Shown one piece after another: positions 676 through 45,082 of a stretch of DNA of 64,000 nucleotides (the first letter of the stretch is position 1; every line of letters begins with the position of its first letter). This stretch comes from Candidatus Krumholzibacteriia bacterium (lineage in GTDB: Bacteria; Krumholzibacteriota; Krumholzibacteriia; Krumholzibacteriales; Krumholzibacteriaceae), in assembly GCA_963836185.1 (NCBI GenBank), contig CAWIIQ010000001.1:2163309-2227308 (forward strand), written 5' to 3'. The notes beneath the pieces are model-generated. The model did not search any database. It worked only from the letters and a program-made list of their open reading frames with translations, and was not told the origin of the DNA. Made by a program: the position numbers and the translations under genes.

Positions 676-770
676 AGCGCGGACGCGCCTTCCTGCCTGC
701 TGTACTATCGGGTAATAAGGGGAGAGGACGGACACGCACGGCGCGCACCCGCAGGGGGATCGTATCTCGA

Positions 771-890
771 ACCACCTTCTCCCATCCAGACTGTAACTGT
801 CGGCTCCGGAATTTCACCGGATCGGTGAGCCTTTCGGCCCATTCGCGGGCTTTGACCGCCGGTGGGGAATCTCACCCCGCCCCGAAGGTT
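771..890 (-). promoter_or_regulatory. FMN riboswitch (RFN element) in ribD leader
   Basis: Minus-strand RNA CUUCGGGGCGGGGUGAGAUUCCCCACCGGCGGU...AGCCGACAGUUACAGUCUGGAUGGGAGAAGG matches the conserved RFN cores (UUCGGGGCAGGGUGAAAUUCCCGACCGGCGGU and AGCCGACAGUGAAAGUCUGGAUGGGAGAAGG) and sits directly upstream of ribD. Confidence 0.8.
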
Positions 891-896
891 GTAATT

Positions 897-1817
897 TCAT
901 ATAAATCTACACGAGTCGCAGCTCTGTGTCAAGCCTCTGACGGGCCGCATCAGGGCCGAGATGAACTCGGAATGATCGAACGGTTCGAGGTCGTCGGCGC
1001 TCTCGCCGACCCCGACGAAGAGCACGGGGACGCCGAGCTTCTGCTGTATGGGGATAACGGCACCGCCCTTGGCCGTGCTGTCGAGCTTGGTGAGGACTAT
1101 GCCTGTCACGGGCAGCCCGTTAGTGAAGGCCTCTGCCTGCCGAAGCGAGTTCTGCCCCGAGTTGGCGTCGATGACGAGCCATGCCTCGAGAGCTATTCCA
1201 TCCATCCTGTCCCGCAGGACCCTGAAAATCTTGCCAAGTTCCTCCATCAGGTTGACCTTTGTGTGCAGCCGCCCTGCGGTATCGACGATGACGATGTCTA
1301 TTCCCTTCGCTTTGGCAGACTGCACGGCGTCGAAAGCGACCGCCGCAGGATCGGAGCCCATATTCTGCCTGACGACCGGCGTTCCTGTCCTCTTGCCCCA
1401 CAGTTCGAGCTGGTCTATCGCCGCCGCGCGGAAGGTGTCGCACGCGGCGAGCATCACGCTCTTTCCCTCTTCCTTGAACCTCGCTGCCAGCTTGCCGATC
1501 GTCGAGGTCTTGCCGACGCCGTTAACGCCGACGATCACAATCACCCTCGGGCTCCCCTCGGGAAGGGGAGGCGCTGGGATCTCGTCGATTATCGAGAGGA
1601 GCTCATCGGCCACCGCCTGCATGTGGTCACCCGCTCCGCGCAAGCGGATGCTCTCGACGATCCGCTCGGTCGCCTCCACGCCGAGATCGGCGGAATAGAG
1701 GATCGACTCCGCCTCCTCGATAGCTTCGTCGTCCAGCTCGCCGGATGACAGGGCTTCACGCAGAGGGCGCAGAAAACGCTCCCTGGTCTTCCTCAATCCC
1801 TGGAAGATGCGTTTCAT
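897..1817 (-). CDS. ftsY: signal recognition particle receptor FtsY
   Basis: 306 aa ORF with SRP54-type GTPase motifs (GVNGVGKTSTIGKLA, DTAGR, TKLD) and an N-terminal helical domain; C-terminal tail is slightly longer than typical. Confidence 0.9.
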   Translation of the reverse strand: MKRIFQGLRKTRERFLRPLREALSSGELDDEAIEEAESILYSADLGVEATERIVESIRLRGAGDHMQAVADELLSIIDEIPAPPLPEGSPRVIVIVGVNGVGKTSTIGKLAARFKEEGKSVMLAACDTFRAAAIDQLELWGKRTGTPVVRQNMGSDPAAVAFDAVQSAKAKGIDIVIVDTAGRLHTKVNLMEELGKIFRVLRDRMDGIALEAWLVIDANSGQNSLRQAEAFTNGLPVTGIVLTKLDSTAKGGAVIPIQQKLGVPVLFVGVGESADDLEPFDHSEFISALMRPVRGLTQSCDSCRFI

Positions 1818-1832
1818 CGACCGTTGATTCTC

Positions 1833-4800
1833 CTAGTTGGACGATACCGGAGCCGCCTCGGGCTCCTTCTTCTTCGGGGCCGGCTGCCGCCTGGCGAGCA
1901 GGTCCTCGATCTCGGTGAGGTCGACCGAGACCAGCCTGGAAACACCCTTCTCCTCCATCGTCACCCCGAAGAGCTGGTCCGCGGCCGCCATCGTCCGCTT
2001 GTTGTGAGTGATGATGATGAACTGCGTCTCCACGGAGAACTTCTTCAGCATCTTTACGAACCTCTGGATGTTCGCGTCGTCGAGAGGCGCGTCGACTTCG
2101 TCGAAGATGCAGAAGGGGCTCGGCTTTGCCTTGTAGAGAGCGAACAGGAGGGCGAGCGCGGTAAGGGCACGTTCACCGCCCGAGAGGAGCGAGATGTCCT
2201 GTATACGCTTGCCCTTGGGCCTGGCCCTGATGATGATATCCGCCTCGAGAGGATCGCTTCCCTCTCCGAGATGAAGATCGGCCTCGCCGCCCTCGAAGAG
2301 CACTGTGAATATCTCTGAGAAATGACCCTTCACCGCGGTGAAGGTATCGAGGAACATCTTTCTCGCGCGCCTGTTTATCTTTTTTATCGCTTCGTCCAGT
2401 TCCTCCCTCGCCTTGACAAGGTCATCCTTCTGGGTAGTGAGGAACTCGAAGCGCTGGTTCTTTTCTTCATACTCCTCGACGGCGGCCAGGTTGACCGGCC
2501 CGAGGCTCTCGAGTTTGCGTTTCTCCCCGTCGAGCATCTCCTTCGTTATCATCTTCTCTTCCTCGGTCAGAGGGATCTCGACTCCCTCGAGGTAGCCGCC
2601 GAGTTCCTCCTCGTACAGCTCCCTCCCGCGATCGACGAGGTCGTTCATACGGGTCTCGACCGATGACAGGCTTACACGCAGGTCGTTTATCTTCTCGAAG
2701 ATCGATTCGCGCTCAGCCTTGCGTTCCTTCAGGGCTCCCTCGATACCGGATATAAGCTCTCGTTTCTCCTCGAGCAGGTCGTGCATCCTGCCGAGTTCCT
2801 CCTCACAGGCGGTCTCCTCATCGAGGAAAGTCTTTACCCCCGCCCGTTCTTCCCCTATCGAGCGCTCGAGCCTCGCCGTCTCTTCCTTCGCCGAGCTGAT
2901 CTCGACACTTCTCTGCTCGATGATCGCCCGGAACTGTTTCTCCATCTCGCCATGGCCCCGAAGCTCCTCGTTCTGCCTGTCGAGAGTTCCCTGCAGAGAG
3001 GCGTGCCTGACCTTGCGGGAAGTGAGCTCCGCATCGAGTTCCTCCCTGTTCTTCCTGTAATCCGAAAGCTCGGATTCGAGCCTCTCGGAATCAGAAATAT
3101 CGCCTGAGCTCTGCTGCATGGCGAGAGCGAGCTTCGCTTCTTCGAGCTTTGACAGCATCTCTACACGGCCGTTCTCGAGCTCGTCTAGAGACTTCATCAT
3201 CATCGAGGTCTTCTCTTTGCCCATGATGAATTCGCGCTCGACCTCCTGGAATGCTTCGCGCCTCAGTCCGAGTTCCTCTCGGCCCCGGGTGGACAGTCTC
3301 GCGATCTCCTCGATCCTCTCCCTCAACGACTCCTTCTCGCCGCGCAGGGATCCGCCTTTCTTCTCGAGGCCGTCGATCTCCTTCTCGAACTCGTTTATCT
3401 CACCGGCAAGTCTTTCGATCTCGCCGGTCCTGCCCAGTATCGAAACTTCTTCTCCGGGCGAACCTGAGAAATAGATCCCCCTGCCTCTCGAAAAGTAGAT
3501 CCCGGAAAGCGTCACCGCTCCCGCCGCGTTTCCATCACCGGACGCGATGAAAGCGAGGGCGTTCTCTATCGTATCGAAGAGGAATATCCCGTCGAGCAGC
3601 TGGTCGATCGCTCTCTTCGCACCTGATGGAGTATCGACAAAGGAAGCGAGAGCGCCCAGCATCCCGGCCGCTTCAGGCCCGTCCGCTCCTGGCGCTTTCC
3701 AGCCCGGATCGTCGGCGAGCAGCCTGGCCCCTCCGAATTTTCCCTCGGAGAGTTCCCTGGCGAGATCGACCGCTCCGCCGAGACTGTCGATCACGACTCC
3801 GTCCATCAATCCGCCCATAACGGCTTCGAGCGCCGCGCGGTATTCCTTCTTCGTCTTTATCATATCGGCAAGGGGGCCCCTGACCCTGGAGTCGCCCTTC
3901 TTGAGAACGTGCCTGGCCCCGCCCGGGAATCCTTCAAGATCTTCTTTCATCCTTATGAAGAGCTCATGCCTGCTCCTCATCGCGGCGATCGATTCTTTCT
4001 TTTCCGCGGCTGCCGCCGCATTCGAGGCGATCTGGGTTTCGACCGTTTCGAGTCTCGCGGTCCGTTCTATGTTTTCGCTTTCGAGAGACGAGAGCACCCG
4101 TTGAGCGTCACTGAGAGCTCCCTGCCTGGCGTCGCGCTCGCCTGCAAGCTCGGCCGTCTCCGATTCGAGGGAGACGATCTGCTCGCGCATGTTCCCCGCC
4201 CTCTCATTGAGATCGGCAAGTATCTTCTCGAAGTGCTCAACCGAACTCTTGACCCGCGCCTGGTCCTGGATGAAATCGAGCTGAGTCTGCTTCAGGTCGA
4301 TGAGCTCCACCTGTATCCGTTCCATCTTTATGGAGATCTCCTCGAACAGGCCGCCCAGCTTCTTGATCTCCGCCTCTTCCGAAGCCATCGATTCACTCGT
4401 CACGGCGACCTCGGTCGCCACTCCCTCCATCCGCTCCGCGATCCTTCCGAGACGCGTCTTAGCCTCCTCGATCTCGCGGCCCGCACGGTCGATCAGGCGT
4501 TCCGCTTCGCCCTTTCGCTCGCTGAACTGGATCGTCTTTTCCTCGGCGCCCTGGATCTTTCTCCTGACCTCGTACCGCCTGTTCTGCAGATCGGTGTTCT
4601 TCTTCTCCAGATCGATGAGCAGCAGCTTCTCTTTCTCGACCTTCTTCTCGCTTTCCTCGAGCGACACATCATCACGGTCGGTGAGCTCCCGGCTGCCGGA
4701 GAGTTCCTTCTCCGCCTCTCTCTTCTCGGCCAGAAGCCCGGAGAGGCTTCTTCGAAGATGAACGATGCCGTACTCACGGATCCTTTCGCTTATCGTGCGG

Positions 4801-5444
4801 TAGCGCCTGGCCTTTCCAACCTGGTATTTCAGGGCCCGGACGTTCTTGCCCAGTTCCTCGAGTATGTCATCGAGCCTGAGAAGGTCGTTCTCAGTCAGCT
4901 TGAGTTTCCTCTTCGCCTCTTCGCGCCGCATCCTGTATTTGACGATACCGGCCGCTTCCTCGAACATCTCTCTTCGTTCGCCGTGCGCATCGTTGAGAAC
5001 ATATTCGACCATCTCCTGCTCGATGACCGAGTATGAATGGCTGCCCGTTCCCGTATCGGCGAAGAGTTCCCTGATGTCCTTGAGCCTGCAGGGTGATTTG
5101 TTGATGAAGTACTCGCTGATACCCGACCGGTAGACCTTTCGCGTTATCGTGATCTCAGCATAATCCAGCGGGAAGGCGCCTCTCTCGTTGCTCACGGTCA
5201 TATTTACGAGGGCGAAGCCGGTCGGTTTGTGGACCTCGGTGCCGTTGAAGATGACATTCTCCATCTTCGTACTTCGAAGCTGCCTCGCGCTCTGCTCACC
5301 GAGCACCCACCTGACGGCGTCGACTATATTGGTCTTCCCGCATCCGTTCGGACCGAGGATGCATGTGATGCCGTTCCTGAGATTCAGTGTGGCGGGATTC
5401 ATGAATGATTTGAATCCGACTAGTTCCAGTCTGGATAGACTCAC
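1833..5444 (-). CDS. smc: chromosome segregation protein SMC
   Basis: 1203 aa; N-terminal Walker A (GPNGCGKTN), long coiled-coil arms, hinge, C-terminal signature LSGGERALTALALLFAL and Walker B (IFDEVDAPLD). Confidence 0.95.
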   Translation of the reverse strand: MSLSRLELVGFKSFMNPATLNLRNGITCILGPNGCGKTNIVDAVRWVLGEQSARQLRSTKMENVIFNGTEVHKPTGFALVNMTVSNERGAFPLDYAEITITRKVYRSGISEYFINKSPCRLKDIRELFADTGTGSHSYSVIEQEMVEYVLNDAHGERREMFEEAAGIVKYRMRREEAKRKLKLTENDLLRLDDILEELGKNVRALKYQVGKARRYRTISERIREYGIVHLRRSLSGLLAEKREAEKELSGSRELTDRDDVSLEESEKKVEKEKLLLIDLEKKNTDLQNRRYEVRRKIQGAEEKTIQFSERKGEAERLIDRAGREIEEAKTRLGRIAERMEGVATEVAVTSESMASEEAEIKKLGGLFEEISIKMERIQVELIDLKQTQLDFIQDQARVKSSVEHFEKILADLNERAGNMREQIVSLESETAELAGERDARQGALSDAQRVLSSLESENIERTARLETVETQIASNAAAAAEKKESIAAMRSRHELFIRMKEDLEGFPGGARHVLKKGDSRVRGPLADMIKTKKEYRAALEAVMGGLMDGVVIDSLGGAVDLARELSEGKFGGARLLADDPGWKAPGADGPEAAGMLGALASFVDTPSGAKRAIDQLLDGIFLFDTIENALAFIASGDGNAAGAVTLSGIYFSRGRGIYFSGSPGEEVSILGRTGEIERLAGEINEFEKEIDGLEKKGGSLRGEKESLRERIEEIARLSTRGREELGLRREAFQEVEREFIMGKEKTSMMMKSLDELENGRVEMLSKLEEAKLALAMQQSSGDISDSERLESELSDYRKNREELDAELTSRKVRHASLQGTLDRQNEELRGHGEMEKQFRAIIEQRSVEISSAKEETARLERSIGEERAGVKTFLDEETACEEELGRMHDLLEEKRELISGIEGALKERKAERESIFEKINDLRVSLSSVETRMNDLVDRGRELYEEELGGYLEGVEIPLTEEEKMITKEMLDGEKRKLESLGPVNLAAVEEYEEKNQRFEFLTTQKDDLVKAREELDEAIKKINRRARKMFLDTFTAVKGHFSEIFTVLFEGGEADLHLGEGSDPLEADIIIRARPKGKRIQDISLLSGGERALTALALLFALYKAKPSPFCIFDEVDAPLDDANIQRFVKMLKKFSVETQFIIITHNKRTMAAADQLFGVTMEEKGVSRLVSVDLTEIEDLLARRQPAPKKKEPEAAPVSSN

Positions 5445-5497
5445 CTTGCAGCACCTCCACGCTCATTGGCGTAAATCAGTTGTTATTATCCCTTGAT

Positions 5498-6991
5498 CTA
5501 ATCCTTTAACGTCACGACTTTCGCGTAACCGATCTGACGAAGATCGAGAAGATCCAGCCTCGTCGCCACGGCCTCCTCCTTCGTCCGGAACTCTCCGACG
5601 TAGACCCTGTACCATTTCTGCCCGTTGACCTCAGTCTCAAGAACGATCGAGTCGTATCCGTTCTTCTCGAGATAGTCCGTCTCCGTACCGGCCCTGCTCA
5701 TCTCCCTGAAAGAAGCTACATGGACCGAATAGTGCGAACCTTCCGGCGCGGGCGTGACGGTACCGGGTTTTGAGACTGGCTGAGTCACGGCGGGTTCTGT
5801 ATCACCTCCGCCGGTCACGGCTTCGTCCGTCTTCTCTTCAACCGGTTTCTCGACCGTTTCCCCGGCAGGCCCGGGTTCCGTGACAGTCTCGACACTGTCT
5901 TCTTCCGCGCCGGTGACGGCAGCGCCATCATCCTGCCCGCGGTCCTTTTTCTCCTGGACATCACGCTGCTTCTGCACGAGCTCCGCGGTCCTGCTTTCAC
6001 CTTCCTTGTTGCTTATCGACTTGTGGATCTTGAACCACCAGACAAGGAATATTACGACGACGACAACAACGACCGAAGTGACGACTCTCGGAAGGCTCAT
6101 CCCGCCGCCTCTATGTTTTCCGTCGCTGTCGAGGTCGGCTGTCTTTTCTATCGCGCCCGCTTCATACCGCTCCTCGCCTTTTTCCTCATCTCCGGCCCCT
6201 TCTTCCCCGGACCCGTCATCGATGCGGACAGGCGGCATGAACGACCCTTCCCCCGGGGAACCCGAGGCATCCTCTCCGAAACAGACAAGATCGGCAGGAG
6301 GAAGATCTGCGCCCAGGTCTCCGAGGTTCTTCTGAAGCTGGCCCTCGGGCATCTCCTCTAGCCTGCACGAAAGGAAAATAGCGTCTGCGAGCGACGCGAG
6401 CGGATTGACCGCCCCGTCATCGGTATAGAGAGTCGAGCAATATATGATAACGTCATGGCTGCGGCTGAGAAAATCTCTCACTTTTGTGAATTCCTTCTTC
6501 GCGAAGGGGATCGTGCGTGAGACGGGGAATGAACCGGGGCCTACCACGGTCACGCCGTCGATACCAGTCGGCCGGGCGATCGTTTTAAGCGAACTTCCGT
6601 AGAGCAGCAGGTCCAGGAACCCCTGATCCTCCGTGTTCTCCACAAGGCCGCTGAGCCCCGGCGAGAGAAAATCGAAGTCGACGATCAGGACATCCCTGCC
6701 GTGCTTCGCGAGGATATGAGCGATCTGCAGAACGGCGAAGTCCCTCGCCAGCCTGTTCTCCCCGACAGACATCGCCAGGATGGAACGGTTTCCTTCCTCC
6801 GTGAATCTTCCCTCGATCCTCGCACCGAGTTCTATGAACCGGTCCAGTTCACGAGCCGATGAAAAATCTCCCGATGACATGAACGCCCTGATGCTCTCCT
6901 CGCCAAGCAGGATCGAGAACCCGCCTTCGACGTGATCGCCCTTTCGTCCTTCGTCGGGCATTCCGCGTTCTTCATCGCCCATGTGGATCAC
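5498..6991 (-). CDS. membrane protein: degenerate ParA/MinD-like N-terminal domain, one TM helix, C-terminal SPOR domain
   Basis: N-terminal region resembles a P-loop ParA/MinD fold but lacks a canonical Walker A (SILAMSVGENRLARDFAVLQ...VLIVDFD); acidic linker; TM helix VVTSVVVVVVVIFLVWWF; C-terminal SPOR-like sequence YSVHVASFREMSRAGTETDYLEKNGYDSIVLETEVNGQKWYRVYVGEF. Start overlaps selA stop by 4 nt. Confidence 0.7.
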   Translation of the reverse strand: MIHMGDEERGMPDEGRKGDHVEGGFSILLGEESIRAFMSSGDFSSARELDRFIELGARIEGRFTEEGNRSILAMSVGENRLARDFAVLQIAHILAKHGRDVLIVDFDFLSPGLSGLVENTEDQGFLDLLLYGSSLKTIARPTGIDGVTVVGPGSFPVSRTIPFAKKEFTKVRDFLSRSHDVIIYCSTLYTDDGAVNPLASLADAIFLSCRLEEMPEGQLQKNLGDLGADLPPADLVCFGEDASGSPGEGSFMPPVRIDDGSGEEGAGDEEKGEERYEAGAIEKTADLDSDGKHRGGGMSLPRVVTSVVVVVVVIFLVWWFKIHKSISNKEGESRTAELVQKQRDVQEKKDRGQDDGAAVTGAEEDSVETVTEPGPAGETVEKPVEEKTDEAVTGGGDTEPAVTQPVSKPGTVTPAPEGSHYSVHVASFREMSRAGTETDYLEKNGYDSIVLETEVNGQKWYRVYVGEFRTKEEAVATRLDLLDLRQIGYAKVVTLKD

Positions 6992-8406
6992 TCCTTCTCT
7001 TTCACATCATTCATCGCCGAAGCGAGACTTTCGATAAGCATATCTTCCTGATCGGAGGGTACCGTTCTGAGGTCCACGAATACGGAGTCACCCCGTACCC
7101 TCGCCAGCACCGGCGGATCGAGCCTTCTCAATCCGCGCTCGAGCCGCTGCGGCCCGCCGGTTGTGAGATTAATCCGCAAAAGCACCGTCCGCAAGGGATT
7201 AATAGGAAAGCTTCCCCCGCCGATCGATGATTCCCCTTCTAATACCTCGATCCCGAACCCTTCAGGCGTCATCTTTTCGAGTTTCTCCGCCGCCCGGCGC
7301 GTACGTCCCTCAAGCCCGCTCAGGTCCTCGAGTATCATCCCGAGGGCCGGGATCCGTTCTATCTCTCCGTTCCAGTAGTGGACGAGCACCTGCTCGAGCC
7401 CCGCAAGCGTCATCTTGTCGATGCGAAGCGCCCTCGACAGATGGTTACCGCGCATCCTGCCGATCATGCCCGCCTCCCCGAGGAGTATCCCCGCCTGCGG
7501 GCCGCCGAGTACCTTGTCGCCGCTGAACGAAACGATATCGACTCCCGTGTCGAGCAGGGGAAGGAGGCTCTCCTCTCCTTCGAATCCCTCATTCTCGACG
7601 GGATAGAGGATACCGCTCCCCTGATCGTACATCACGGGGATATTTCTTTTCCGCCCCAGCTCCGCCAGGGCGGCGACCGGTACCTCGTCTGTATATCCGA
7701 CTACCTTGTAATTGCTCGTATGCACCTTGAGGAGAAGAGTGGCTCCCTCGTCTATCGCCCTCTCGTAATCCCCGAGGTTGGTCCTGTTCGTCGTCCCCAC
7801 CTCGATGACCCTCCCCGCGGCCCGGGTAAGGATCTCGGGAAGCCTGAAGCTCCCTCCTATCTCGACGAGTTCTCCTCGCGAGACGGCGACCGCACCTTCA
7901 CGGGCGAATGTATCGACGGCAAGAAGGACGGCGGCCGCGTTATTGTTCACGACCAGGGCCCCTTCGCACCCCGCGATCGCGCGGAGCAGGGCGGTGACCC
8001 TTCTCGAACGGCTCGCTCTCGAACCTGTCGCGACATCCATCTCCAGGTCTGTGTACCCGGAAGCGGCAGTCAGTACCGCCGATGCCGTCGCCGAATCGAG
8101 CACTGCCCTGCCGAGGTTGGTATGGAGGATGACTCCCGTCGCGTTGATCACGCGGCGCTGCCTGTCAGCGACCAGGGATCCGATCTCCTTCGCGGCCGCG
8201 GCGACGATACTCTCAAGGATAAGGCCGGCATCCTCGACAGCCTCTGCCCGGCCGCTGACGATCCCCTGCCTGTACGATTCTATCCTGTCCCTTACGATAC
8301 GGGTTATGCCGCGGCGCGAGACAAAGTTGACCCGCGCGGCGATCCTCTCGTCTTCGAGAACCCGTTCGACCGAGGGTAAATTCCTCAGAGAGGCATTCCT
8401 GTCCAT
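6988..8406 (-). CDS. selA: L-seryl-tRNA(Sec) selenium transferase SelA
   Basis: SelA-like throughout, including the PLP-lysine region FSGDKVLGGPQAG; start placed at internal ATG (MDRNASLRNLPSVERVL) that aligns with SelA N-termini; the longest ORF extends to 8451. Confidence 0.88.
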   Translation of the reverse strand: MDRNASLRNLPSVERVLEDERIAARVNFVSRRGITRIVRDRIESYRQGIVSGRAEAVEDAGLILESIVAAAAKEIGSLVADRQRRVINATGVILHTNLGRAVLDSATASAVLTAASGYTDLEMDVATGSRASRSRRVTALLRAIAGCEGALVVNNNAAAVLLAVDTFAREGAVAVSRGELVEIGGSFRLPEILTRAAGRVIEVGTTNRTNLGDYERAIDEGATLLLKVHTSNYKVVGYTDEVPVAALAELGRKRNIPVMYDQGSGILYPVENEGFEGEESLLPLLDTGVDIVSFSGDKVLGGPQAGILLGEAGMIGRMRGNHLSRALRIDKMTLAGLEQVLVHYWNGEIERIPALGMILEDLSGLEGRTRRAAEKLEKMTPEGFGIEVLEGESSIGGGSFPINPLRTVLLRINLTTGGPQRLERGLRRLDPPVLARVRGDSVFVDLRTVPSDQEDMLIESLASAMNDVKEKE

Positions 8407-8646
8407 TCCACCCCTGCCCGTTCTCCTGTTAATCCTGCCATTTTCTACCATATGTTGTGGTGCCCGTCAACTGTTTTAACAATATATTGTAAGCGGGTTT
8501 GTCGGTTTTCTTTACATCTCTTTGCAGGGGAGGTACGGGCCGTCTGGAGGACCTTCCCTGGGCGCGGCGAAATTTGCCGCTTGATGAATGAGGGGACTAT
8601 CTGATACACAGCAGATGTAACGAGTTACGGACCCGGGGAGGAACTG

Positions 8647-10740
8647 ATGAAACGCACGGTCATTACCATATCGATCTCGCTGCTGCTGGCGGCCGCCCTT
8701 CTTGCGGGGTGCGGAGGGCGCAGGACTGCATACGATTCACTCTACGCCGAACTCTCCGAGGACCTTTCCGGTTCCGATCCTTCCGTCCTTGCCGGGCGCA
8801 GGATCGTCATCGACCCGGGGCATGGCGGTGAATACAACGGCGCCATCGGAGCCGACAGCCTGAGTGAGGCCGAAGTCAATCTCGGCGTCGCACTATACCT
8901 CTGGGGCCTGCTCGAGGAAGCGGGGGCCGAGGTCCACATGACGAGGTCGTCGGACAGGGACTTCCTTCCCGAGGGCTCTTCGGAACCCGGAGCCGACCTT
9001 GCCGCCCTGCTCAGGGACGACCTTGAGGCCCGGATCGAGAAGGCGAACGAATTCGAGCCGGAGGTATTCATCTCGATCCACCACAATTCGAACATCGCTC
9101 TCGACCGTGAACGGAACGGTATCGAGATATACTACAGAGGCACCGATCACGGAGCCTCCCTCGAACTCGCCACCGATCTTCATACTCACCTGGCGAGAAA
9201 CCTCGGCATATCTGTCACGACTATCAAAACGGGGAACTACTACGTCCTTCGAAACTCGAAGGCCGGCGCCGCAGCGCTGGGCGAGGCGAGCTATCTTTCC
9301 AATCCGGGCGTGGAGGAAAAACTCAAGCTGTCGGCCAAGCAGAAGCTCGAGGCCGAGGCATATTTCCTCGGCCTGGTCGAATACTTCTCCAGGGGCGTCC
9401 CGGTGATAGAGATGACCGGGGCGGACACGGATACATTTACAGCGCCGGCGAGGCTCGAGTTCTTCGTCGAACCCGGCGCGGGAGTCCCTCTCGATCCGGC
9501 ATCGTTCGAAGCGAGGATAAACGGGAAAAGGAGGGCCTGCTTCCAGCCTGAAGATGGCGGGAACCCCTTCTGCCGGATGCCGGCCTCGATGCCGAACGGG
9601 ATATTCTCAGTCACCTTCTCGGCAGGAAGCGTCAAAGGGGCGACGGCGACATACGGGCCGAAGAAGATGCTGCTCGACCGTCCCTTGAGATTCTTCCTTC
9701 CGATGGCCCCGACAACGAGTTCTGACGGGTCGAAACGCCTCGAAGTGCTGGTACTCGATGCTGGGGGACGGCCGGTCTCCGACGGAAAGGCGATATCCCT
9801 GGTCGGAGAGGATGGAAAGAACAGGAGCACCTCGTTTACGAAGAAGGGAATCGCCCACTTCATCAGCGGTACGGCAACCGGATCCTTTTTCGTTTCCTCT
9901 GGTACTTCCATCGACACACTGAGATTCGATGAAGGAGGAGCGGGATCGGTCCTTTATACAGTCGCGGTGAACGACCTTACCGACAGCCCGATCCCTGGCG
10001 CGATCCTTCGTTTCGCCGATGGAAGTACGGCAGAGAGCAACAGGAAAGGACAGATCATCTCGGCGCCGGCGGAAACAGCCGGAGCCATCCTCTATGCGCC
10101 TGGATATGAACCGGCGCCAATCGGATCGATGGACTCGGAAGCCTACATGGATCGCGTCCTCTTCACGAGGATGACCCCTCTCTACGGAGGAGCCCTGCTC
10201 GGAAAGAAGGTCGTCATCGATCCCGCCGGAGGAGGCACGGACGACGCGGGCAGGGGCGCGGGAGCACTGCGCGGCGCCACTGTCAACCTGCGCCTCGCGA
10301 GAGGACTCGAAAAGCTGCTCACTGCAGCAGGGGCATCAGTCCTCTTAACGAGGGCGGGCGAGGAGCAGCTCTCAGATCAGAACAGGATATTCAGGGCAAA
10401 CAGGGTCGGGGCACACATGGCGATCGGGCTTAGATTCGGAGGTGCTGAAGTTACGGACGCGGGATGCTCCGTCTACCACTATCCGGGCAGCGTCAAGGGA
10501 ACAGCGTTCGCAGACAGCCTTGTCTCAAGCCTCTCCGGCATGCCTCCATGCGAATCGTTCGTCAAGGCCGGATCATCCGATCTCTTCCTCCAGCAGACGA
10601 ACTGTCCGGCGGTATTGTTATCTGGCGGCTCGCTCTCCGATGCCGGGACCGAGAATATCCTCGGCTCACCAAAGTGGATCCGGCTTGAGTCGGAAGCGAT
10701 CCTGAGAGCCCTTGCCGGATACTTCGGCGGCGGAGACTGA
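8647..10740 (+). CDS. N-acetylmuramoyl-L-alanine amidase lipoprotein with two Amidase_3-like domains
   Basis: Lipoprotein signal (LLAGCGG); two amidase_3-type domains (VIDPGHGG...ISIHHNS near the N-terminus, VVIDPAGGG...HMAIGLRFGG near the C-terminus). Confidence 0.8.
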   Translation: MKRTVITISISLLLAAALLAGCGGRRTAYDSLYAELSEDLSGSDPSVLAGRRIVIDPGHGGEYNGAIGADSLSEAEVNLGVALYLWGLLEEAGAEVHMTRSSDRDFLPEGSSEPGADLAALLRDDLEARIEKANEFEPEVFISIHHNSNIALDRERNGIEIYYRGTDHGASLELATDLHTHLARNLGISVTTIKTGNYYVLRNSKAGAAALGEASYLSNPGVEEKLKLSAKQKLEAEAYFLGLVEYFSRGVPVIEMTGADTDTFTAPARLEFFVEPGAGVPLDPASFEARINGKRRACFQPEDGGNPFCRMPASMPNGIFSVTFSAGSVKGATATYGPKKMLLDRPLRFFLPMAPTTSSDGSKRLEVLVLDAGGRPVSDGKAISLVGEDGKNRSTSFTKKGIAHFISGTATGSFFVSSGTSIDTLRFDEGGAGSVLYTVAVNDLTDSPIPGAILRFADGSTAESNRKGQIISAPAETAGAILYAPGYEPAPIGSMDSEAYMDRVLFTRMTPLYGGALLGKKVVIDPAGGGTDDAGRGAGALRGATVNLRLARGLEKLLTAAGASVLLTRAGEEQLSDQNRIFRANRVGAHMAIGLRFGGAEVTDAGCSVYHYPGSVKGTAFADSLVSSLSGMPPCESFVKAGSSDLFLQQTNCPAVLLSGGSLSDAGTENILGSPKWIRLESEAILRALAGYFGGGD

Positions 10741-10813
10741 CCGCTCAGCCCTGCGCGCGTTTTACCCATCCTTGACCTTTTCGTCTTTCATCGCGATATT
10801 TACAGAGAACAAC

Positions 10814-11479
10814 ATGGTAGAGAAGATAAAACAATATGACCGCAAGTGGAGAAAGAGGCTGATCTACCTCCTTCCAGTCTCCATCCTTCTGCTCATCATC
10901 ATAGTGCTGAGCGTTGAAAAGACCGGTATAGCAGACAGGATATTCAACGTCGGATATGAAGGCCCGATGGAGATCCTTCCCCAGATCACGATCCTCGAAG
11001 ACGCCGGTATAGAGGCGGAGATCTTCGAAAAGGAGAGGCACGACATGGTCGCTCGCGAGGTAGAGGTCTACAGCGAGGAGATCGAGGACGAGAACGAGGA
11101 AGCGGAGACATCGCTCTCCCCTAAGGAGGATCCCGAGGAACCGATATACGACGACTTTGAAGGATACGACCCGATCCGCACATACGAATCTCACGCCTCC
11201 GTTCCCTACAGGGAAGACTACGTCATCAAGAAGATGATCGAGCCCGTCTATCCGTCGCAGGCGATGCTCCTCGGCCACGAAGGGTATGTGCTCGTAGAGG
11301 TCTACGTCAACGACGAGGGTTTCGTTCAGGAAGCCTGGGTAAGGAAGATCAAGGGGGACGAGAGTTTCGAGGAGGCCACCCTCGATGCGGTCAGGCAGTT
11401 CGAGTTCAGGCCCGTCATGGAAAGGGGAAAGCCTATATCGTTCTGGCTGAGTTTTCTGGTGAGATTCGAACTGAACTGA
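10814..11479 (+). CDS. TonB C-terminal domain protein
   Basis: Internal ATG (MVEKIKQYDRKWRK) followed by a TM helix (LIYLLPVSILLLIIIVL), acidic linker and TonB_C-like end (YPSQAMLLGHEGYVLVEVYVNDEGFVQEAWV...FRPV); ORF extends upstream to 10712. Confidence 0.7.
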   Translation: MVEKIKQYDRKWRKRLIYLLPVSILLLIIIVLSVEKTGIADRIFNVGYEGPMEILPQITILEDAGIEAEIFEKERHDMVAREVEVYSEEIEDENEEAETSLSPKEDPEEPIYDDFEGYDPIRTYESHASVPYREDYVIKKMIEPVYPSQAMLLGHEGYVLVEVYVNDEGFVQEAWVRKIKGDESFEEATLDAVRQFEFRPVMERGKPISFWLSFLVRFELN

Positions 11480-11484
11480 CCCGG

Positions 11485-13218
11485 TCAGCGGACCGGTGCC
11501 GAAATGGTCACAAATTCCTCTACCTTTTCCCCCCTCACGATATTGAACCTGATCCCGTCACCGGACATCAATTCTATGAAGTTGTGCTGCTTCTCCATGA
11601 GCATCCTCTCCATCTCATCGCGCAGCGATTCTTCGGATGCGGAGGATGCAGCCATCGCCTCAAGCACCTTCCTCACCCCGTCGTATCCTCCCGTGACGAA
11701 CCTGTTGATATCGCCCCCCTCGTACCCTGTCAGCACCGCCGCGGCCAGGTATCTCTCCTCGCTCGAACCAGATATGTCTTCGGCGGGGAAGACAGCTCCC
11801 TCCAGGTCGCGGCCCGTCATCCTCAGGAGCTTGCTCGAGTTCCACGACGATGTGCCGAGCAACTGAACACCGAACTCATAGAATGAAAGCTGCGGAAGGA
11901 TCAGAACGAGATCCTCGGAATCCGGCGGGAGGAAGAGCGCTTCAGGAACGGCATCCCTTATCCTCTCGATATCGTATCTGAAATCGGTGCTGCCCGGCTC
12001 ATAGAAGTCCGCGATGCAGAGCGTCCCTCCGAGCCCCTCGACCTCGAGCCTCAGAAGCTCGGCGAGAGAATGCCATCTCGGTGAATCCTCGGCCATGAAG
12101 GCGATCCTGCGTATGCCCATCTCGAGGATGGCCACTCTCGCTACGGCAGCTATCTCCGTCTCGTAATCCTGCGAATGCTGGAATATATACGGGCCTATCC
12201 CCGTTATCCCCTCCTCCGACGCCACGGGAGAGTAGAGGACCGTTCCGGCATACTCCGCAGCCTGCGCCGCGGCTATCGTCGTAGAACTGAGAACGCCCCC
12301 TACGATAGCGTCTACATTCTCCTCCTCTATCAGGACGACAGCGGCACTTCTCGCATCGAGCGCGTTAGACCGCGTATCTCCTACGACCAGTTCCACTCCG
12401 GTCACGCCGTACTCTCTCGCCTCGCGTATCGCTATGGTCGCGCCGCGCAGAAATTCCCTGCCCAGAGGTGCGAACCTGCCGCTCAGGGGGCAGAGCAGTC
12501 CTATCGAACCGGCAGCCTCGCCAGCGCCCGGATCTCTCGGCCTTACTGCTCCCGGTGCGACCGTCCTTCCCGGGATAGGCGCGATCGTCGTCTCCATCGT
12601 GTCGAGCTCCGCGATGTGCGACCTGATCTCCCTCACAGAAGCTGTATCTCCGGCCGCCTCGGCTATCAGGAGCGAACCTTCGTATACAAGCTCGATGCCA
12701 GGAGCTGCCGGGTACGTCTCCTCCAGGCCTGCCAGCTGGCTTCCTGACAGAAGTGGTACTATCTGCGACAAGCCCGCCCTGGCCTCCCCGCTTACCGAGG
12801 GATCGAGGGCCATTGCGGTCATGAAACGTGCTGCTGCGTCCTCGAATCTACCCTTGTCCCTGTCTATCCCGGCCAGAAGGATGTTCACCTCAGCGGCAGT
12901 CCCGGCGCCGGTCTCGGGAGAGGCCAGCGGCGAAAGGATCTCATATGCCTCTTCGGAGAATCCGAGCTCGATGCAGGATCTTCCTGTCTCCAGGCTTACC
13001 TCTCCGGCGGCATCCGAATCGGGATATGTATCGAGAAATTGCTTTCCGGACTTGCGAACGGCACGATCATTACCGCTCGAGACATATGAACGCAGCTCTT
13101 CGAGTTGCTCATCCTGTATCTGCTGAGGGGATACTTCTGTCTCGACAGACGCCTTCTTCGTCGCGCACGAAGTCAGCAACAGCAGGATGAGTCCAGGTAT
13201 GAAGATCTTTTTCATCAT
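11485..13218 (-). CDS. lipoprotein with TPR-like N-terminus and periplasmic-binding-protein (LivK/LpoA-like) C-terminal domain
   Basis: Signal plus lipobox (LLLLTSC); C-terminal half resembles type-I periplasmic binding fold; overall architecture like penicillin-binding-protein activator LpoA. Confidence 0.55.
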   Translation of the reverse strand: MMKKIFIPGLILLLLTSCATKKASVETEVSPQQIQDEQLEELRSYVSSGNDRAVRKSGKQFLDTYPDSDAAGEVSLETGRSCIELGFSEEAYEILSPLASPETGAGTAAEVNILLAGIDRDKGRFEDAAARFMTAMALDPSVSGEARAGLSQIVPLLSGSQLAGLEETYPAAPGIELVYEGSLLIAEAAGDTASVREIRSHIAELDTMETTIAPIPGRTVAPGAVRPRDPGAGEAAGSIGLLCPLSGRFAPLGREFLRGATIAIREAREYGVTGVELVVGDTRSNALDARSAAVVLIEEENVDAIVGGVLSSTTIAAAQAAEYAGTVLYSPVASEEGITGIGPYIFQHSQDYETEIAAVARVAILEMGIRRIAFMAEDSPRWHSLAELLRLEVEGLGGTLCIADFYEPGSTDFRYDIERIRDAVPEALFLPPDSEDLVLILPQLSFYEFGVQLLGTSSWNSSKLLRMTGRDLEGAVFPAEDISGSSEERYLAAAVLTGYEGGDINRFVTGGYDGVRKVLEAMAASSASEESLRDEMERMLMEKQHNFIELMSGDGIRFNIVRGEKVEEFVTISAPVR

Positions 13219-44301: not shown

Positions 44302-44379
44302 GAGCGCAGTCCCCCGGTAAGAAGTTCAGGAGACCGTGCACCCGGAATCGAAAGGCACCCCCGGCTCTTGCGTCAGGGT

Positions 44380-44495
44380 TAGCTCCTGTCAGGATACCCG
44401 CGGCACATAAGAATGACTGCGTACCGCTGCTACCTTCCGGTCCTGACGGGGTTGGCAGGTTCTCATTGCGCGGGTCCTGGCACTCAACACCACTT
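44380..44495 (-). ncRNA. ffs: signal recognition particle RNA (small, 4.5S type); boundaries approximate
   Basis: Minus strand GUCAGGACCGGAAGGUAGCAGC (44447..44426) matches the conserved domain IV motif GUCAGGUCCGGAAGGAAGCAGCC; location immediately upstream of dnaX is the conserved ffs-dnaX-ybaB-recR synteny. Confidence 0.75.
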
Positions 44496-44611
44496 CCCGC
44501 CGCCGATCGCTCGGAGACAACGCTCCCTCAACCGGGAATTCGGCCCCGCTATAGCGGATTGCGGGTGCAGGGCACCGCTAATTCCCCGCCTAGCACGATC
44601 TCTGATAGAAA

Positions 44612-44687
44612 TGGTGGAGATGATCGGATTCGAACCGACGACCCCCTCGTTGCGAACGAGGTGCTCTCCCAGCTGAGCTACATCCCC
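44612..44687 (-). tRNA. tRNA-Ala (anticodon CGC)
   Basis: GGGGAUGUAGCUCAGCUGGGAGAGCACCUCGUUCGCAACGAGGGGGUCGUCGGUUCGAAUCCGAUCAUCUCCACCA; G3:U70 identity pair; anticodon loop UUCGCAA. Confidence 0.9.
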
Positions 44688-44740
44688 ACCCTTTATTATC
44701 AACGCCGGCCCGCTTACCACGGCCCGGCAGTCCAATCCAA

Positions 44741-44830
44741 TGGCGGAGAGAGAGGGATTCGAACCCTCGGAGGAGTTGCCCCCTCAACGGTTTTCGAGAC
44801 CGTCCCGTTCAACCGCTCCGGCATCTCTCC
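44741..44830 (-). tRNA. tRNA-Ser (anticodon CGA)
   Basis: Type II tRNA with long variable arm; anticodon loop CUCGAAA; T-loop GGUUCGAAUCC; encoded CCA. Confidence 0.88.
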
Positions 44831-44839
44831 GTCGGGAAC

Positions 44840-44866
44840 TATATATAATCGGCGCCAAGATATCAA
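44840..44866 (-). promoter_or_regulatory. candidate sigma70-like promoter for tRNA-Ser(CGA)/tRNA-Ala
   Basis: Minus strand TTGATA-N15-TATATA ending about 10 nt upstream of the tRNA 5' end. Confidence 0.35.
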
Positions 44867-44900
44867 TAGCGGAGAGTCGTATTGTCTGCTGATTATGTGA

Positions 44901-44990
44901 ATTAATGGCCGGGACGGACATAATTAATGGCCGGGACGGACATGATTTACGCCAGGATTGGATATAATTTATGCCGGGATGGACATAAAA
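44901..44990. repeat. four tandem copies of a roughly 22-bp repeat (ATTAATGGCCGGGACGGACATA and diverged copies)
   Basis: ATTAATGGCCGGGACGGACATA / ATTAATGGCCGGGACGGACATG / ATTTACGCCAGGATTGGATATA / ATTTATGCCGGGATGGACATAAAA in direct tandem, in AT-rich spacer between two tRNA-Ser genes, ending at the 3' end of tRNA-Ser(GGA). Confidence 0.8.
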
Positions 44991-44991
44991 A

Positions 44992-45082
44992 TGGCGGAGA
45001 GAGAGGGATTCGAACCCTCGGAGGAGTCACCCCCTCACACGATTTCCAATCGTGCCGATTAAGCCAGCTCTCGCATCTCTCC
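44992..45082 (-). tRNA. tRNA-Ser (anticodon GGA)
   Basis: Type II tRNA with long variable arm; anticodon loop UUGGAAA; encoded CCA. Confidence 0.88.

Follow-up and report, generated by a model that had tools for sequence, protein, structure and literature searches.

What is the role of a protein that carries a degenerate P-loop domain and a septal peptidoglycan-binding SPOR domain, and whose gene is lodged between selA and smc? We addressed this question for a gene within a 64,000-nucleotide stretch of the genome of a Candidatus Krumholzibacteriia bacterium (contig CAWIIQ010000001.1; the whole stretch is referred to here as the window). The gene (5498..6982, minus strand; stop codon 5498-5500) codes for 494 amino acids from an ATG at 6982, the start on which all residue numbers below are based. 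The open reading frame (ORF) is genuine and conserved, and encodes a single-pass membrane protein, the N-terminal domain of which has the P-loop fold of the MinD/ParA/BY-kinase (SIMIBI) group and is specifically like that of the bacterial tyrosine kinases (BY-kinases). Judged by its motifs, this domain is a catalytically degenerate BY pseudokinase, predicted to be incapable of canonical P-loop catalysis or tyrosine autophosphorylation. As to function, we lean, cautiously, towards a septum-targeted scaffold that presents this domain in the cytoplasm.

The cytoplasmic domain has a BY-kinase-like fold

An initial annotation of this DNA had described the N-terminal half of the protein as a degenerate ParA/MinD-like domain, and had proposed to check both halves against Pfam and by structure prediction. 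When the full protein was compared with Pfam, SPOR alone was recognised, as expected for the C-terminal half; the CbiA, ParA and AAA_31 families, expected for the N-terminal half, gave no match at E ≤ 1. NCBIfam models yielded sub-threshold matches only, over residues ~62-226, to BY-kinase models (eps_fam at 1.6e-7, EpsG and Wzc) and to a KGGVGR-variant AAA model. Since the Pfam check by itself would have missed the fold of this domain, profile-to-PDB and structure searches were needed. A profile built from 28 N-terminal domains and compared with PDB sequences identified the BY-kinases BceF (5e-5), CapB (3.5e-4) and Wzc (3.6e-3), and also Etk, with Soj/ParA at 0.035.

An AlphaFold2 model built from 60 family members contains two folded parts, residues ~17-236 (predicted local distance difference test, pLDDT, mostly 80-95) and residues 415-494 (pLDDT 93-97), together with disordered stretches at residues 240-294 and 352-405. 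In a Foldseek comparison of the first of these parts (6275..6934; aa 17-236, modelled with high confidence) with the PDB, the top 50 matches were all BY-kinase catalytic domains, with a best E of 6e-10 and target-normalised TM-scores of 0.64-0.77 for isolated kinase-domain chains. Similarity to ParA/MinD structures was clearly lower, about 55 fewer residues being aligned. We rejected a ParA/MinD ATPase as the identity of the domain, as its nearest structures are BY-kinases and as the deviant Walker A motif KGGxxGK[ST], with its signature Lys, was absent both from a regular-expression scan and from the alignment. Thus structure prediction bore out a folded N-terminal domain of the SIMIBI group, and the P-loop assignment and the degeneracy noted in the initial annotation both stand, while its ParA/MinD identity gives way to a BY-kinase-like one.

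A conserved family that keeps its domain order to about 20% identity

At E ≤ 1e-3, a word-indexed search returned 191 homologues, of which the 120 listed have E ≤ 1e-117 and are nearly all full length. Where NCBI gives a name to the close homologues, it is 'SPOR domain-containing protein [Candidatus Krumholzibacteriota]', and JGI names for them are FtsN, DedD, DamX or RodZ. We then scored a profile of the N-terminal domain alone against 1.84 billion cluster representatives, which gave 974 matches at E ≤ 1e-3 and 97 at E ≤ 1e-10, with canonical Wzc-type kinases (C-terminal domain, intact Walker A) showing up only below about 1e-10. The best 150 of these matches include ~74 distant proteins, at 20-28% identity, in which the same order of N-terminal domain, one transmembrane helix and SPOR domain is found. 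A homologue search with a third-tier alignment as query yielded 23 proteins. Because there are 191 homologues and the domain order is held down to ~20% identity, the conservation goes far beyond chance.

The family's strongest signatures are QGFLDLLLYGSSL (aa 120-132) and GPGSFPVSRTIPFA (aa 148-161), encoded within 6500..6625, and peptide patterns from this region were used to retrieve 66 loci in a scan of one genome per GTDB species. Loci with taxon names belong to Krumholzibacteriota, Latescibacterota, UBP1 and Chitinivibrionia metagenome-assembled genomes (MAGs). One locus labelled 'Patescibacteria group bacterium' (DATKWS010000016.1) carries a full Krumholzibacteriota-type gene block whose proteins are 47-69% identical to those of the window, and the contig has probably been mis-binned or mislabelled.

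The P-loop motif GK[ST] is found in none of the distant set, bar two outliers. These proteins, P0211 (two loci) and P0215 (one locus), possess an intact EGK[ST] Walker A (Pfam CbiA/AAA_31) followed by one transmembrane helix and a SPOR domain, and their gene contexts, an epimerase in one case and sensor-like genes in the other, are unrelated to the smc block. They were rejected as orthologues on account of these different contexts and are treated here as paralogous. Their sequences suggest that active SIMIBI-ATPase/SPOR fusions also exist, which appear uncharacterised.

Catalytic motifs are lost and their replacements are conserved

We used hidden Markov model (HMM) alignment to 3la6 and 6z0p to locate the positions of the BY-kinase motifs. 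The degenerate Walker A region is SVGENRLARDF (aa 72-82; 6737..6769), in which Wzc GVSPSIG(K540)T aligns with SVGENRLA-R80-D81, so that K540 is replaced by R80, T541 by D81 and the Gly before the Lys by A79 (Ala or Ser in the family). The Walker A'-like segment VLIVDFDFL (aa 98-106; 6665..6691) aligns with VLLIDCDMR; both Asp residues, D102 and D104, are retained and the Arg is lost (L106). In the Walker B-equivalent strand, HDVIIYCSTL (aa 176-185; 6428..6457), DVIIYCSTL aligns with LVLIDTPP and the position of the catalytic Asp is occupied by Y181. All four residues (R80, D102, D104 and Y181) are invariant in the 60 close members. The absence of an intact Walker A Lys, already noted in the initial annotation, is therefore a fixed feature of the family, as are the accompanying changes of Ser/Thr to Asp and of the Walker B Asp to Tyr.

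The same picture extends to the distant members, in which Arg occupies the Lys position in 66/74, D102 is kept in 69/74 and D104 in 57/74, and the Walker B position holds an Asp in 0/74. Invariant columns in the two signatures at aa 120-161 (G121, D124, Y128, G129, S131, G150 and S151) are likewise retained at distance, G121, D124, G129, S131, G150 and S151 each being present in at least 71 of the 74. Across the N-terminal domain the mean column identity is 68%, and its 44 invariant columns are clustered at former motif positions, a pattern that indicates strong purifying selection. Since the motif changes and the kept residues hold across the 74 distant members, the pseudoenzyme state appears to be ancient and selected, and not the product of recent decay.

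Other hallmarks of BY-kinases are also gone. A C-terminal tyrosine cluster was not found, there being a single Tyr (Y273) in the acidic disordered tail between the kinase-like domain and the transmembrane helix, and the ring-forming EX2RX2R motif of BY-kinases is not kept when the alignment is inspected by eye. BY pseudokinases without catalytic motifs or a Tyr tail have already been described in EcpK and HfsB, and the domain described here fits the definition of a BY pseudokinase given in that work, except that the DxD is retained (PMC12004946).

A bitopic membrane protein with a C-terminal SPOR domain

Following the pseudokinase domain, the protein continues into an acidic, disordered cytoplasmic linker (6098..6274; aa 237-295), which contains 17 Asp and Glu to 6 Lys and Arg and has a pLDDT below 50 at aa 240-294. 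Within it lies the motif IEKT (aa 278-281), whose E279 and K280 are found in at least 90% of members. A hydropathy scan identified a single transmembrane helix (6026..6094; aa 297-319), which is part of a continuous AlphaFold2 helix at residues 297-349 that holds the protein's sole hydrophobic segment; the one helix expected from the initial annotation is thus confirmed by both approaches. Its residues R299, F312 and W316 do not vary in either the close or the second-tier alignment, and the pattern S..PR / F..WW is visible down to ~20% identity. On the far side of the membrane (5741..6025; aa 320-414) are a juxtamembrane periplasmic helix, ELVQKQRD, which is conserved within the close family only and not in the 20-28% relatives, and a disordered linker rich in Glu, Pro and Thr.

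The remainder of the protein (5501..5740; aa 415-494) is the SPOR domain that had been anticipated at the C-terminus. It matches PF05036 over aa 418-478 (E=1.8e-11, 44.7 bits vs a cutoff of 21) and has an RNP-like beta-alpha-beta-beta-alpha-beta fold. Alignments to DamX, CwlC and FtsN equate H421, S424, W457 and R459 with FtsN Q251, S254, W283 and R285, which, according to the discussion in PMC6895207, make up four of a set of five residues at which mutation lowers septal localisation. These positions are mostly kept: S424, W457 and R459 are invariant in the family, and the Gln position is an invariant His, which could still hydrogen-bond the lactyl carboxylate. SPOR domains bind amidase-denuded glycans, and these glycans are enriched at the septum (PMC6895207). 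The domain here is a genuine SPOR domain that looks functional, and such binding is predicted for it. Because the protein has one transmembrane helix, with the P-loop domain N-terminal to it, no signal peptide and a peptidoglycan-binding C-terminus, its sequence implies that it must be a bitopic inner-membrane protein of N-in/C-out topology.

A frozen gene order around smc and ftsY

Proteins encoded by the gene's neighbours in the window were compared by tblastn with all fetched loci (~70; L001-L071). Seven genes (window 897-13218) follow one another in a conserved order, namely those for a Peripla_BP_6 lipoprotein, a TonB_C protein, an amidase, selA, the SPOR protein, smc and ftsY, with the TonB_C protein and the amidase, a double Amidase_3 lipoprotein, encoded on the strand opposite to the selA-SPOR gene-smc-ftsY run. 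The block is present in essentially every locus long enough to display it. It holds where the SPOR protein is 25-28% identical and SMC 33-35% identical, and two proteins that are more distant still, P0193 and P0182, are likewise encoded between selA and smc-ftsY. The order is thus frozen across phylum-level divergence, which is unusual for genes of such unrelated functions.

Immediately upstream of the SPOR gene lies selA (6988..8451, minus strand; Pfam SelA 2.1e-123; TIGR00474 502.7 bits vs a cutoff of 267.9). Downstream by 53 nt lies smc (1833..5444, minus strand), recognised by Pfam SMC_N and SMC_hinge, and ftsY (897..1817, minus strand; TIGR00064 314 bits vs a cutoff of 260.7) is the last gene of the co-oriented run, in agreement with the placement directly upstream of smc and ftsY reported in the initial annotation. 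Terminator-like sites in the gap between the SPOR gene and smc are no commoner than shuffled expectation, and the numbers of sites in promoter and terminator scans matched those of shuffled controls, which speaks neither for nor against internal signals, with the caveat that promoters of this lineage may depart from the sigma-70 consensus. Co-transcription of selA, the SPOR gene, smc and ftsY is consistent with the terminator scan, if unproven by it.

The amidase gene (8647..10740, plus strand) is divergent from selA and kept in nearly all related loci. It codes for a 697-aa lipoprotein with an LAGC lipobox and a match to Pfam Amidase_3 in two stretches (7e-54), making it a plausible maker of the denuded glycan bound by the SPOR domain. 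At the far end of the block, the 577-aa lipoprotein (11485-13218, minus strand) combines a helical, TPR-like N-terminal part with the Peripla_BP_6 domain, and NCBIfam found in it weak matches to ABC-transporter substrate-binding proteins and nothing else. Its architecture presumably resembles that of LpoA, an activator of penicillin-binding proteins. Because the frozen block holds selA, ftsY, the amidase, the TonB_C protein and this binding-protein-like lipoprotein as well, gene order is here weak evidence of shared function. The suggestion in the initial annotation of a division-site protein tied to chromosome segregation accordingly survives in part: adjacency to smc is deeply conserved, and the tie itself, for which that adjacency is the evidence, is not established.

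A putative septal scaffold and its alternatives

Taking together the directly observed architecture, folds, motif degeneration, conservation and synteny, we consider it somewhat probable that the protein acts without catalysis as a cytoplasmic scaffold targeted to the septum, its head being a BY pseudokinase. A non-catalytic job is likely because the chemistry is lost yet conservation within the protein is highest at the former active-site cleft, and this conservation of the former nucleotide or substrate cleft suggests a preserved binding site, be it for a ligand or a partner. BY pseudokinases, EcpK and HfsB among them, have been proposed as non-phosphorylating scaffolds (PMC12004946), and by analogy the domain here may play a similar role. 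Through its SPOR domain the protein would bind amidase-denuded glycan strands, plausibly supplied by the conserved neighbouring amidase, and would be concentrated at the constricting septum, as are FtsN, DamX and DedD; a septal location is what known SPOR behaviour would predict. Held at the inner face of the septum, the BY-pseudokinase domain would then form a docking surface that recruits or organises a partner, and the conserved transmembrane helix and juxtamembrane IEKT motif could provide further contacts.

Several observations weigh against this proposal. The invariant Arg and DxD could mean that a ligand or nucleotide is still bound, so that the term 'non-catalytic' is unproven. The His of the SPOR domain replaces a Gln that contacts N-acetylmuramic acid in RlpA, FtsN and DamX, which bears on glycan specificity. 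In the AlphaFold2 model the linker motif is not confidently placed against the domain (pLDDT below 50). In addition, no cultured organism is found among the named loci of the 66 retrieved, all named members being uncultured MAGs.

The first of these points can be taken further, to a domain that remains active, in a non-canonical way, as a nucleotide-binding switch or kinase, in which Arg and DxD bind nucleotide or a phospho-ligand and regulate septal oligomerisation. R80, D102 and D104 are indeed the most conserved residues even at ~20% identity, and P0211 and P0215, which join an intact EGK[ST] Walker A to SPOR, make an active ancestor plausible. Such activity is nonetheless improbable: the family has lost the glycines of its P-loop, every member carries an aromatic or aliphatic residue where the Walker B Asp would be, a Tyr cluster to phosphorylate is missing and the ring-forming motif is not kept. 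The protein could also be an FtsN analogue, with the periplasmic juxtamembrane helix or the transmembrane segment serving as a trigger that activates septal peptidoglycan synthases and the cytoplasmic domain binding FtsA or FtsZ. This would fit the topology (N-in, one transmembrane helix, disordered linker, C-terminal SPOR), the conservation of R299, F312 and W316 in the membrane and of the ELVQKQRD helix, the labels FtsN, DedD or DamX that public pipelines attach to homologues, and a weak match to TIGR02223 (E=2.4e-5). That match, however, scores 24 bits vs a cutoff of 107.65 and spans the linker and SPOR only; the periplasmic helix is unconserved in the 20-28% relatives, a W/Y/L-type EFtsN motif is not visible by inspection, and the cytoplasmic part is a 220-aa folded domain and no short basic tail. 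An FtsN-type trigger therefore seems unlikely.

Two further readings were weighed. One is that the SPOR-held pseudokinase contacts SMC, ParB or another nucleoid factor, so that chromosome clearance is coordinated with constriction. The selA-SPOR gene-smc-ftsY order is kept in virtually all 66 loci and in ~22% relatives with an smc 33-35% identical, no terminator-like signal beyond chance lies between the SPOR gene and smc, and a precedent exists in CpsD and ParB, where a septal protein of BY-kinase fold acts on chromosome segregation (PMC4574921). Set against this, the block also carries genes without a functional tie to SMC (selA and, past ftsY, an FMN riboswitch with rib genes), its order may simply be frozen, and no DNA-binding or SMC-binding motif was found. 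Adjacency of smc and ftsY is, furthermore, widespread without a SPOR gene, as in the rnc-smc-ftsY operon of Bacillus subtilis. We regard coupling of this kind as rather unlikely, and as slightly more so in its most specific form. In that form the family would be a previously unrecognised part of the divisome in candidate phyla of the FCB group (Krumholzibacteriota, Latescibacterota and relatives), and a denuded-glycan cue would place a BY-pseudokinase platform at the cytoplasmic face of the closing septum; there it would engage ParB or the co-transcribed SMC complex, so that clearance of the chromosome is coupled to constriction. If true, this would be a peptidoglycan-to-nucleoid signalling route without counterpart in model bacteria.

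The other reading is a polysaccharide-pathway BY pseudokinase, similar to EcpK or HfsB, that scaffolds a co-polymerase for the export of capsule or exopolysaccharide (EPS), with SPOR doing no more than positioning export at the septum. The closest folds are all polysaccharide BY-kinases, known BY pseudokinases act in EPS pathways (PMC12004946), and among the distant relatives one bears the label capsular exopolysaccharide synthesis family protein. Genes for Wzz/PCP (polysaccharide co-polymerase), Wza, Wzx/Wzy and glycosyltransferases are, however, absent from the conserved neighbourhood of the ~70 loci, and the protein has its own transmembrane helix without a PCP periplasmic domain. A role in polysaccharide export was rejected on the gene neighbourhood and is scarcely credible.

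What the septal scaffold would add

SPOR proteins are the main known bacterial readout of septal wall processing, and to our knowledge BY-kinase-fold proteins are known almost solely from polysaccharide export. Both components of the protein, bitopic SPOR division proteins and BY pseudokinases, are thus familiar, but their fusion is undescribed in the searchable literature, as the initial annotation had supposed in recalling no characterised protein of this architecture; its restriction to uncultured phyla and its fixed place upstream of smc-ftsY are likewise undescribed there. A conserved fusion in which kinase chemistry is lost and the cleft preserved would mean that the BY-kinase fold has been adopted as a division-site module in phyla without a cultured model, and would extend the BY-pseudokinase class past polysaccharide pathways. 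The protein is also a candidate organiser of the cytoplasmic side of the septum in lineages whose SPOR protein has no FtsN-family match. For annotation, a gap is closed: a 220-aa region that public records cover as 'SPOR domain-containing protein', or mislabel as FtsN, DedD or DamX, now has a fold and a family definition. Finally, the invariant selA-SPOR gene-smc-ftsY order provides a testable hypothesis of coupling to chromosome organisation.

Start codon and further features of the window

An alternative GTG start at 6991 would extend the ORF to 5498..6991 (minus strand; 497 aa, +3 residues). The start is probably the ATG at 6982, because the public gene call (P0001; 494 aa, 100% identical to the ORF) begins with MGDEER, this N-terminus is conserved among homologues, and a Shine-Dalgarno-like AAGGAG lies at 6996-6991, 8 nt before the ATG. 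With this start, the selA stop codon (6990-6988) is followed by a 5-nt spacer, and the 4-nt overlap with selA given in the initial annotation, which needs the GTG, is probably a start-codon artefact. The junction as called in homologues is a 4-nt overlap or a gap of 2-5 nt, so that a tight selA junction is a conserved feature whichever start is right.

Directly after ftsY lies an FMN riboswitch (770-893, minus strand; Rfam RF00050, 115.6 bits). Related loci continue past it with ribD, a gene for the alpha chain of riboflavin synthase (Lum_binding), ribBA and ribH. The selA-SPOR gene-smc-ftsY run has its 3' boundary at the riboswitch, where the following unit, formed by the rib genes in related loci, begins. 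Though selA is present, ARAGORN found no tRNA-Sec among the seven tRNAs of the 64-kb window, four of which are tRNA-Ser; selC, selB and selD, if present at all, must lie outside the window. Elsewhere in the window, a large-type bacterial signal recognition particle (SRP) RNA (RF01854, 191 bits; 44334-44598, minus strand) adjoins a tRNA-Ala/Ser/Ser cluster (44612-45082, minus strand). This SRP RNA is the long, Alu-domain-containing form, here in a Krumholzibacteriota-like genome.

Comparison with known systems

In its overall plan the protein resembles FtsN, DamX and DedD of Escherichia coli, all of which are type II single-pass proteins with a disordered periplasmic linker and a C-terminal SPOR domain. 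The resemblance to FtsN extends to the conserved SPOR residues at the positions of S254, W283 and R285, and an amidase gene lies nearby here. The difference is on the cytoplasmic side, where FtsN and DedD possess a short tail and DamX an unrelated region, whereas the protein described here has a 220-aa folded BY-kinase-like domain. Its scores against the corresponding NCBIfam models are far below their cutoffs for FtsN (NF008179, 13.3/525, in addition to TIGR02223 as given above), and it scores 16 bits against a cutoff of 256 for DamX (NF008153).

Compared with the BY-kinases Wzc, Etk, CapB, BceF and VpsO, the protein has [SA]-R-D in place of the Walker A GK[ST] and Tyr in place of the Walker B Asp, and it lacks both the C-terminal Tyr cluster and a PCP domain. 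Its transmembrane helix follows the domain and does not precede it, and its gene lies beside smc and ftsY where theirs lie in polysaccharide clusters. Compared with ParA/MinD ATPases, it is without their deviant Walker A.

Closer in state are EcpK of Myxococcus xanthus and HfsB of Caulobacter crescentus, which share a BY-kinase fold without catalytic Walker motifs or a Tyr-rich tail. EcpK, which has a PCP-2 as its partner, is a stand-alone protein encoded with EPS genes, and lacks Walker A' too (PMC12004946). The protein described here, in contrast, retains the DxD, is anchored in the membrane and bears a SPOR domain, with neither a PCP-2 partner nor EPS genes found in its conserved neighbourhood. 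CpsD of Streptococcus pneumoniae differs in other respects, being an active and soluble autokinase that is tethered by CpsC, encoded in the capsule locus and devoid of SPOR. It is nevertheless a BY-kinase at the division site that is tied to chromosome segregation through ParB (PMC4574921), and so offers the best precedent for septum-chromosome coupling by a protein of BY-kinase fold.

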